Shown here piece by piece: positions 52,215-54,152 of a stretch of 64,000 bases of DNA. The notes under the pieces were generated by a model. The model was not told where the DNA came from. It saw nothing but the letters and a program-made list of their open reading frames with translations, and searched no databases. The position numbers and the translations under genes are program-made. This DNA comes from Candidatus Limnocylindria bacterium. GTDB lineage: Bacteria; Chloroflexota; Limnocylindria; QHBO01. The stretch spans positions 9,698 through 73,697 of the forward strand of contig JBKJVN010000153.1 of assembly GCA_046717345.1 (NCBI GenBank), in the 5' to 3' direction. Positions within the stretch are counted from its first letter, which is position 1. Each line of letters starts with the position of its first letter.

Positions 52215-52542
52215 CGTCGCGTGCTCACCCTCTGTTCAACCAGGGCGCCGCAGGCCGCCGAACACGCGCGAGGCTGGCGTTTCGCCAGCCTCATCGGTGG
52301 GTCGTTGACGGTCTGCGTCGCGTGGCGGCGATTCTAGCCTACCCTCGTCGCGGGGTGTCAAACCCCGGTCGGGGCCAACTGGCTGCGAATCATTGCCCGG
52401 GTTACCGGCGGGCGCTACACTACGCCGACCCCCCGGAGCCAGACGCCCACCAAACGGGCCGTATCCGCCCCGGAGGAGCACCAGAATCTCGGAATTCGCC
52501 CGGTCCGTGGCTCGCCGCGGCCGGCCTGGAGGCGTCTGTCGA

Positions 52543-53883
52543 ATGGATGCGAAACAGGTGTGGCGCGCCGTCCTCGGCGAGCTGCAGGTCAGCCTTTCGG
52601 CCGCCAACTTTGAAACCTGGCTGAAGGACACTTCGCTCGAAGAGATTGACGAGCACCTGTTCCGCATCTCGGCTCCCAACGGGTTCACCCGGGACTGGCT
52701 GGACAACCGCTATCGGACCCTGGTCAGCCAGACCCTGGCCCGGGTCGTCGGCCGTTCGGTGCGGGTCGAGTTCGTGGTGGCCGATGCCCCCGGCCCTGCC
52801 CCGGAGCAGTCGAGTGACGAGCTGACGCCGGTCCCGGTCTCCACGCCCAGCGGGAACGCGGTCAACCTCAACGGGCGGTACACGTTCTCGAACTTCATCG
52901 TCGGCAGTGCCAACCGGCTGGCGCATGCCGCTGCCCTGTCGGTCGCAGAGCGGCCCGGCCATGCCTACAACCCCCTGTTCCTGTACGGCGGGGTCGGCCT
53001 GGGCAAGACCCACCTGATGCACGCCATCGGGCACGCGGTGGCGGCCAAGTTTCCGCGCAAGCGGATCCTGTACGCAACCAGCGAGAAGTTCACCAACGAC
53101 TTCATCAACTCCATCCGCGAGCAGAAGATGGAGGACTTCCGGGGCCGATATCGGCGCATCGACGTCCTGCTCATCGACGACATCCAGTTCATCGCCGAGC
53201 GCGAGCGGACCCAGGAGGAGTTCTTCCATACCTTCAACGCCATCCACGAGATCGGCAAGCAGATCGTCCTCAGCTCGGATCGGCCGCCCAAGGCCATCAC
53301 CACCCTGGAGGAGCGGCTTCGCTCGCGGTTCGAGATGGGGCTCCTCGCCGACCTGACCCCGCCCGACCTGGAGACCCGGATCGCCATCCTGCGATCGAAG
53401 GCCGAGGACCAGCTGCACCTCATTCCGCCGGAGGTCATCGAGTTCATCGCGCGCAAGGTGGTGAGCAACGTCCGTGAGCTGGAGGGCGCCCTGAACCGGG
53501 TCCTGGCCTATGCCTCCATGAGCGGGGCACCGATCAACATCGAGCTGGCGTCGGCGGTGCTCAGCAATGTCATGTACAACCCGCGCAAGCGGTCCATCAC
53601 CCCGCAGCGCATCGTGCGCGTGGTGGCGGACTACTACGGCGTGAACCTCGATCAGCTGCGCAGCAGCAAGCGGGAGAAGGCGATCGTCGTCCCGCGCCAG
53701 ATCGCGATGTACCTGATCCGGGAGGAGACCGATATCTCGCTCCTGCGGATCGGCGCCGAGCTGGGCGGCCGCGACCATTCAACGGTGCTGCACGCCTGCG
53801 ACAAGATCAACCGCGAGATGGCCGAGAACGACGAGCTGCGCCGCGAGATCAGCGCCGTGCGGGAGATGATCTACTCGGAGTGA
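52543..53883 (+). CDS. dnaA: Chromosomal replication initiator DnaA
   Basis: AAA+ Walker [11 protein letters not shown]. Domain IV. Start at MDAKQVW. The upstream extension was rejected. Confidence 0.95.
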
Positions 53884-54152
53884 GGTGGTGGACAACCGGC
53901 CTGGGGCTGGGGACAGGCGGGGGAGCGCGTGCCGGCCGCAGTTGACGCTCCGCGTGGCCCGGAGCTGGCTTCTCAGCTGTCCGTCGACGAATCGGGCTGG
54001 CCCGCCAACCGCGCATCCCCGGGCTGCCAACACGGGCCGGACGGCCTCTCGAAACCAGATGACCGGGATGTCCACACCATCCACACCCCTACTACCAGAG
54101 ACGACGATTCAAAGACTCTATGCTTCAGGTGAACCGTAGTGAGACGCATTTC
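53884..54152. promoter_or_regulatory. oriC: Candidate oriC: DnaA-box-like 9-mers plus AT-rich unwinding element between dnaA and dnaN
   Basis: GGTGGACAA (53887), ATGTCCACA (54068) and CCATCCACA (54077, abutting) resemble TT(A/G)TCCACA. Followed by a ~65-nt stretch at ~47% GC in a 70% GC genome. Confidence 0.45.

Follow-up and report, generated by a model that had tools for sequence, protein, structure and literature searches.

A probable continuous replication origin between dnaA and dnaN in an uncultured Limnocylindria bacterium (Chloroflexota)

The chromosomal origins of Mycobacterium and Streptomyces lie in the spacer between dnaA and dnaN, and the Escherichia coli origin, oriC, uses IHF and 13-mer repeats. 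The dnaA–dnaN interval is a common location of oriC and holds the unwinding regions of Bacillus and Clostridioides (PMC6669920, PMC7561715, PMC4285127), and the dnaA gene cluster has long served as an oriC marker (PMC4285127). In the basal unwinding system (BUS), a DnaA box pair is followed by a short spacer, by DnaA-trios (3'-GAT-5' on the bottom strand) and by an AT-rich region (PMC6669920, PMC8287927, PMC10721633), a module that experimentally unwinds DNA in several phyla and in which the first trio lies at most 16 bp from the better box, with a peak at 10-13 bp (PMC8287927). A literature search found no experimentally defined oriC of Chloroflexota. Here we analyze a 64,000-nucleotide stretch (the window) of contig JBKJVN010000153.1 from Candidatus Limnocylindria bacterium (assembly GCA_046717345.1), and propose that the spacer between its dnaA and dnaN genes is very probably the chromosomal oriC, forming a single continuous origin as opposed to a bipartite one.

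A preliminary description of this DNA had reported three near-consensus DnaA boxes, two of them abutting, in the dnaA–dnaN spacer, and an AT-rich segment of ~65 nt (~47% GC) beyond them. All three boxes, TTGTCCACC, ATGTCCACA and CCATCCACA, were recovered, and the spacer sizes given for both sides of dnaA proved exact on the gene map (Table 1). The distal box TTGTCCACC begins 4 nt past the dnaA stop codon in reverse orientation, while ATGTCCACA and CCATCCACA form a tandem pair whose TCCAC cores are 9 bp apart and in which TCCACACC occurs as a direct repeat. Next to the pair stand CCC and two CTA triplets, the third triplet being CCA (3'-GGT-5'), and from the end of ATGTCCACA to the first trio there are 12 bp. 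The segment 54086-54152 has a GC content of 49.3%, and the lowest 65-nt stretch of the whole window starts at 54090 with 44.6% GC, against 68.8% for the window. The lowest 100-nt stretch (49% GC) falls on the same element, which by nearest-neighbor energies is also the least stable duplex in the 64 kb over 20, 45 and 60 bp. When the approximate intergenic gaps of the window are all compared, the dnaA–dnaN spacer comes first in core density and last in local GC, and no other gap combines boxes with low GC.

This arrangement is that of B. subtilis incC/BUS and C. difficile oriC2 in its location between dnaA and dnaN and in its orientation relative to dnaN. As in incC/BUS, co-oriented adjacent boxes (ATGTCCACA and CCATCCACA, both on the plus strand) are followed on their 3' side by a short GC spacer, by top-strand CTA triplets and by an AT-rich region, with a distal box, which may be in either orientation, further upstream; the 12 bp to the first trio fall within the published peak. 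Bacillales and Clostridia loci carry TTATCCACA-tATCCACAa-gac-CTACTACTATTACTACTA and then an AT-rich run in their dnaA–dnaN spacers, in the same orientation. The trios of the window match the CTACTACTATTACTACTA element of four loci (L013, L014, L015 and L030) in orientation and register, the 12-bp distance is common to the window and the Bacillales loci, and orientation and register agree likewise with the trio sequence of C. difficile oriC2 (PMC7561715). There are also differences from these systems: the cores are 9 bp apart here and 8 bp apart in the Bacillales loci examined, two canonical trios stand against about six, and the lineage box consensus is approximately YYGTCCACN instead of TTATCCACA. 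Moreover, the AT-rich element is still ~45-50% GC, in a genome of 69% GC, and a DciA-type helicase loader (a weak match) probably takes the place of DnaD/DnaB/DnaI.

The initiator protein fits the same comparison. DnaA shares 50% identity with its B. subtilis counterpart, and among solved structures it comes nearest to that same protein as seen in 8BTG, a cryo-electron microscopy complex of the BUS (E 1e-145). Among the residues whose roles in capturing trios or forming the oligomer have been described (PMC10721633), E183, N187, I190, I193, R202, E223, E228 and R264 are identical, and the only changes, N196Q and K222R, are conservative; by this alignment DnaA keeps the residues of trio capture and oligomerization.

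The likeness to high-GC Actinobacteria comprises a single dnaA–dnaN origin in a GC-rich genome, boxes with G as their third base (TTGTCCACA type) and the gene order rnpA-rpmH-dnaA-dnaN-recF (PMC4285127). In a Gaiellaceae locus (L078), TGATCCACA is followed by CTT CTA CTA CTG CTA in the same orientation as in the window; the architecture with 12 bp from box to first trio thus recurs in Bacillales, Clostridia and Gaiellaceae loci. Unlike these bacteria, in which up to 19 boxes occur (S. coelicolor; PMC4285127) and the spacer reaches ~950 bp, the window has 3 recognizable boxes in 269 bp. With E. coli oriC it shares DnaA boxes adjoining a candidate AT-rich unwinding element, the opening of which would likewise be DnaA-dependent, although the E. 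coli origin is not located at dnaA and has other gene neighbors (PMC4285127), a setting that the window does not share.

Because the number of boxes in the window is by itself at chance level, the case for an origin rests on comparison with relatives. A protein-based DnaA scan yielded 80 loci, the closest of which are Chloroflexota metagenome-assembled genomes (MAGs) labeled Chloroflexia, Thermomicrobiales and Limnocylindrales (DnaA identity 70-89%). Ten loci that keep the rpmH / dnaA–dnaN order served as the relatives; found through the DnaA protein, they constitute a non-circular sample. In these, TCCAC/GTGGA cores occur at 16.6/kb in the dnaA–dnaN spacer and at 2.0/kb both in the rpmH–dnaA spacer and in the rest of the loci, an 8-fold enrichment limited to the dnaA–dnaN spacer, and each of the ten carries two forward boxes in tandem, with 9 bp from core to core. 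After the pair come a spacer of 2 bp (CC in nine loci, GC in L041), a 3-nt-periodic run and a low-GC block. A DNA-pattern scan found the exact 22-mer TCCACACCRTCCACACCCCTAC in 23 metagenome contigs (DnaA identity 87-100%), always in the dnaA–dnaN spacer wherever flanks are present. Alignment of the spacers leaves footprints on the distal reverse box, on the pair with CCCCTAC and on parts of the AT-rich block, while the remainder diverges. The GTGGAnAAC column of the distal box is kept in nearly all 13 aligned spacers (L095 has GTGCATAAC). Relatives, like other Chloroflexota, have three reverse boxes at intervals of ~21 bp, and the distal box is the counterpart of the first. A strongly conserved purine-rich block, GATGACGGAGTGAGAAGATAGAGAGAAGATACCCAC, which opens with (ATG/GTG) triplet repeats, follows the pair in L003-L006, L008, L032 and L041 (for example L003 4609-4655), a clade of 70-76% DnaA identity; in the window and in L001, this position is occupied by another sequence.

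These data bear directly on the possibility that three box-like 9-mers and a low-GC leader coincide by chance and have no role in replication. In favor of coincidence, boxes with at most one mismatch number 7 in the whole window where 7.4 are expected; with a position weight matrix (PWM) built from the boxes of the relatives, nine other 270-bp stretches of the window equal the dnaA–dnaN spacer in having three hits; and ~18% of simulated 64-kb windows hold a 9-bp-phased pair somewhere, as the window itself does by chance in secA. Box counts in the window thus cannot carry an origin claim. What is distinctive is the combination of a pair abutting the most AT-rich stretch, the particular spacer and the conservation in relatives. 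A CTACTA within 0-7 nt after the pair has p ~6e-4 (our estimate from base frequencies), the pair and its position are conserved over DnaA identities of 70-100%, and the 8-fold enrichment in independent relatives is confined to one spacer; by the enrichment and the conservation of the pair, chance is effectively refuted.

Look-alikes elsewhere in the window were considered as origin-like sites. The secA pair (40607-40623, TTGTCCACC then TCGTCCACG, on the antisense strand) was rejected, as the sequence encodes a VDEVD motif; GTGGAC (Val-Asp) codons mimic DnaA boxes in GC-rich genomes. Boxes at 3438 and 3459 were likewise rejected, lying at the start of a small coding open reading frame (ORF) that we read as DUF192 type.

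A more serious alternative is that the boxes serve DnaA-dependent control of dnaN or titrate DnaA, that the AT-rich stretch is the promoter or leader of dnaN, and that the true origin lies outside the window. It draws on the position of the AT-rich stretch next to the dnaN start and on the regulation of the dnaA-dnaN operon by DnaA boxes in B. subtilis, as cited in PMC6669920; the loss of most boxes in the window's own clade could, in addition, mean relaxed constraint. The relatives argue otherwise. There, the 50 bp after the pair have 38-54% GC, the 50 bp before dnaN have 66-70% GC in nine of ten, and the dnaN start lies 70-169 nt beyond the pair and low-GC block, with ~100 nt of sequence at 66-70% GC in between in those nine. 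Since the low-GC block tracks the pair and the sequence before dnaN is GC-rich, the AT-rich element belongs to the pair and not to the dnaN start. In three more remote loci of Chloroflexota, L016 (4540-4830), L043 (4375-4515) and L046 (4475-4530), dnaA is no longer succeeded by dnaN, yet three reverse boxes of consensus type are retained immediately behind dnaA at intervals of ~21 bp, and L016 also has a textbook box pair, then CTA CTA TCA CTA CTA and an AT-rich run. A scan for sigma-70 promoter and terminator consensus sequences over 52000-54400 found nothing, the dnaA–dnaN spacer included, and the order of pair, GC spacer, trios and AT-rich region with its 12-bp distance matches a module that unwinds DNA experimentally (PMC8287927). 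We consider this alternative unlikely.

The preliminary description had also placed the box cluster and unwinding element downstream, not upstream, of dnaA, a placement that the cores, pair and low-GC block of the relatives strongly support. This side of the matter concerns a bipartite origin of the B. subtilis or H. pylori type, in which the rpmH–dnaA spacer would hold a second subregion with boxes too divergent to recognize. The gene order is as in Bacillus, DnaA is closest to Bacillus DnaA, and low-affinity boxes can stray far from the consensus (PMC8287927). However, in agreement with the earlier claim that this spacer lacks convincing boxes, its 328 bp contain no site with two or fewer mismatches to TT(A/G)TCCACA and not a single TCCAC/GTGGA core, and the PWM scan of both spacers, set beforehand as a test, gave its hits in the dnaA–dnaN spacer and no stronger cluster upstream of dnaA. 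A second box cluster across dnaA, the bipartite-type feature present in B. subtilis, is absent from 52215-52542, and core density in the upstream spacers of the ten relatives equals background. The conserved blocks of the upstream spacer are explained more simply, and with no need of boxes, by divergent promoter-like elements for dnaA and rpmH together with a hairpin and ribosome-binding sites, which makes a bipartite origin very improbable.

The blocks in question emerge from an alignment of ten upstream spacers. They include GGAG-type ribosome-binding sites and two divergent pairs of hexamers (Table 1), whose putative promoter function is suggested by position and conservation and neither of which was called by the consensus scan. 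The pair assigned to dnaA lies ~120 nt upstream of the gene with no DnaA box nearby, and DnaA autoregulation at its own promoter is therefore not evident from the sequence. Downstream of the pair assigned to rpmH, a perfect 10-bp hairpin, GAGGCTGGCG ttt CGCCAGCCTC, has a stem that is conserved and a loop that varies in nine of the ten aligned sequences, and is absent in L097; it has no Rfam match and may be an rpmH/rnpA leader structure.

Several observations weigh against the proposal that the dnaA–dnaN spacer is oriC. Only three boxes are recognizable, where studied origins have 5-19 (PMC4285127). With starts at 53887, 54068 and 54077 (gaps of 181 and 9 bp, mean 95 bp), they fall just barely inside the limits set for oriC by Mackiewicz 2004 (quoted in PMC7561715), at least three DnaA boxes at a mean distance below 100 bp; the relatives, with 5-10 TCCAC cores per spacer, fall clearly inside it. 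Searches for a BUS by the published rule require a run of three or more NAN trios (3'-NAN-5'; consensus 3'-GAT-5'), and our re-implementation of this rule had no match in the spacer, which has two. Runs of at least three triplets occur in only four of the ten relatives (L003, L032, L007 and L009) and consist of ATG/GTG (3'-TAC-5') instead of GAT. Used with the E. coli box consensus, the published rule detects neither the window nor most of the relatives, since the boxes of this lineage differ from TTATCCACA by 3-4 mismatches. The element thus appears to be BUS-like with a degenerate trio array and not a full member by the published rule.

Further counterevidence comes from a relative and from the composition of the window. 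In L002 (JAPVSP010000519.1, locus 2300-7148; DnaA identity 75%), a convergent 925-aa ORF follows ~85 bp after dnaA, and neither dnaN nor a TCCAC cluster was found within 3 kb on either side of dnaA. Either its origin module must lie elsewhere in its genome or the contig must be misassembled; the link between origin and dnaA is hence not absolute in the lineage, and the absence of a box cluster near dnaA in this locus is also a point in favor of dnaN control or DnaA titration. The same holds for the skew, which gives no tie between replication and the site: GC skew and cumulative skew show no clear switch at the scale of the window, which is short and has weak asymmetry, and the coding-strand skew at third codon positions (GC3 skew) of the plus-strand genes to the left (-0.096), minus-strand genes to the left (-0.087) and plus-strand genes to the right (-0.090) differs within error. 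Gene orientation agrees with an origin on the right side and over the first 5 kb to the left, while at 31.8-48.9 kb (~17 kb on the left) genes are head-on, pointing towards the site.

The gene context is that of a classical origin neighborhood (PMC4285127), with yidC, yidD, rnpA and rpmH on the minus strand and dnaA, dnaN and recF on the plus strand. These genes score far over the cut-offs of their NCBIfam equivalog models; the exception is yidC, for which the only match is a YidC C-terminal subfamily-domain model. An in-frame ATG at 54120 was rejected as the dnaN start, as the relatives align in tblastn from the first residue of the protein starting at 54153. Following recF, a 119-aa ORF (from 56497) has a weak DciA match under cut-off (Pfam E 0.0035). 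At the usual place of gyrB, an ORF of ~740 aa (from ~56853, to 59069) has coding-like GC3 and no Pfam or NCBIfam match; the assumption that the 837-aa ORF at 56556-59069 is gyrB was dropped for want of a match in either database. A tmRNA gene (48024-48381; Rfam 129.9 bits; ARAGORN tag peptide GNRQFALAA) lies ~6 kb from the proposed origin, and Rfam and tRNA scans found nothing besides this distant gene.

Table 1. Features around dnaA in the window (positions within the 64,000-nt stretch).
Feature	Position	Strand	Remarks
rpmH	52080-52214	-	gene map, NCBIfam
rpmH–dnaA spacer	52215-52542		328 bp
Hairpin, perfect 10-bp stem	52270-52292		56-78 nt upstream of rpmH start
rpmH promoter-like pair	TTGACA (reverse complement of 52356-52361) / 19 nt / TAGAAT (reverse complement of 52331-52336)	-	conserved in 10-sequence alignment
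dnaA promoter-like pair	TTGCCC 52394-52399 / 17 nt / TACACT 52417-52422	+	conserved in 10-sequence alignment
dnaA	52543-53883	+	446 aa; TIGR00362 E 7e-169
dnaA–dnaN spacer	53884-54152		269 bp
Distal DnaA box TTGTCCACC	53887-53895	-	1 mismatch to TTRTCCACA; 13.0 bits with lineage PWM
Decayed box CTGTCCCCA	53908-53916	-	PWM 4.3 bits; 21 bp from distal box
Upstream box of tandem pair, ATGTCCACA	54068-54076	+	1 mismatch to TTRTCCACA
Downstream box of tandem pair, CCATCCACA	54077-54085	+	2 mismatches; abuts ATGTCCACA
CCC	54086-54088		short GC spacer between boxes and trios
Two canonical DnaA-trios	54089-54094	-	top CTA CTA = bottom 3'-GAT GAT-5'
AT-rich candidate DNA-unwinding element	54089-54152		overlaps dnaN 5' leader and ribosome-binding region
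dnaN	54153-55289	+	378 aa; TIGR00663 E 4e-75

The elements of the dnaA–dnaN spacer, their order, spacing, orientation and conservation, and the trio-binding residues of DnaA can be read off directly; that DnaA binds the spacer, unwinds it and starts replication there is what they suggest. The scheme we propose has the layout of the basal unwinding system described for B. subtilis incC. ATP-DnaA would bind the abutting boxes of the pair and the distal reverse box, and decayed boxes in between may serve as additional low-affinity sites. An AAA+ oligomer of DnaA would then extend from the tandem pair in the 3' direction onto the bottom strand, starting at the two GAT trios, whereupon the adjacent AT-rich segment (~54095-54152) would open and the helicase would be loaded there.

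As a type, this is an ordinary continuous dnaA–dnaN origin, as in Actinobacteria and the Bacillus incC region, and its location is unsurprising since such placement is common. Unusual is only how few elements survive in the clade of the window, namely three recognizable boxes and two canonical trios. Sister clades have retained 5-10 boxes, which in the alignment face decayed copies in the window. In a clade of 87-91% DnaA identity there are 5-8 cores, among them those of three reverse boxes ~21 bp apart, the second of which, GGTGGATATC, aligns over the decayed box CTGTCCCCA at 53908, a candidate low-affinity site that may still contribute; in the window's own clade (DnaA at least 97% identical) only 2-3 cores are left, and the window shows decayed copies at the lost positions, 53908-53916 and ~53935-53945. 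Three boxes and two trios are fewer than the five boxes known from the smallest origins studied and the three trios found necessary in B. subtilis. We tentatively raise the possibility, which we regard as somewhat doubtful, that this clade runs its chromosome on an exceptionally pared-down origin that comprises, within 269 bp, a distal box, a single tandem pair and two trios.

If the origin is indeed so reduced, either very degenerate low-affinity sites would carry the load or the minimal requirement for opening by DnaA would be lower than model organisms lead one to expect. The clade-specific loss of boxes and trios constitutes a natural test of the minimal DnaA origin. The understanding of how origins function is unchanged by the finding. 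Its practical use is that the likely origin of an uncultured GC-rich soil Chloroflexota is fixed, which would help in orienting MAGs, in estimating growth rates from coverage and in annotation. Lastly, a phylum without experimental origin data would join those with the layout of box pair, trios and AT-rich region, in support of this layout being ancestral.

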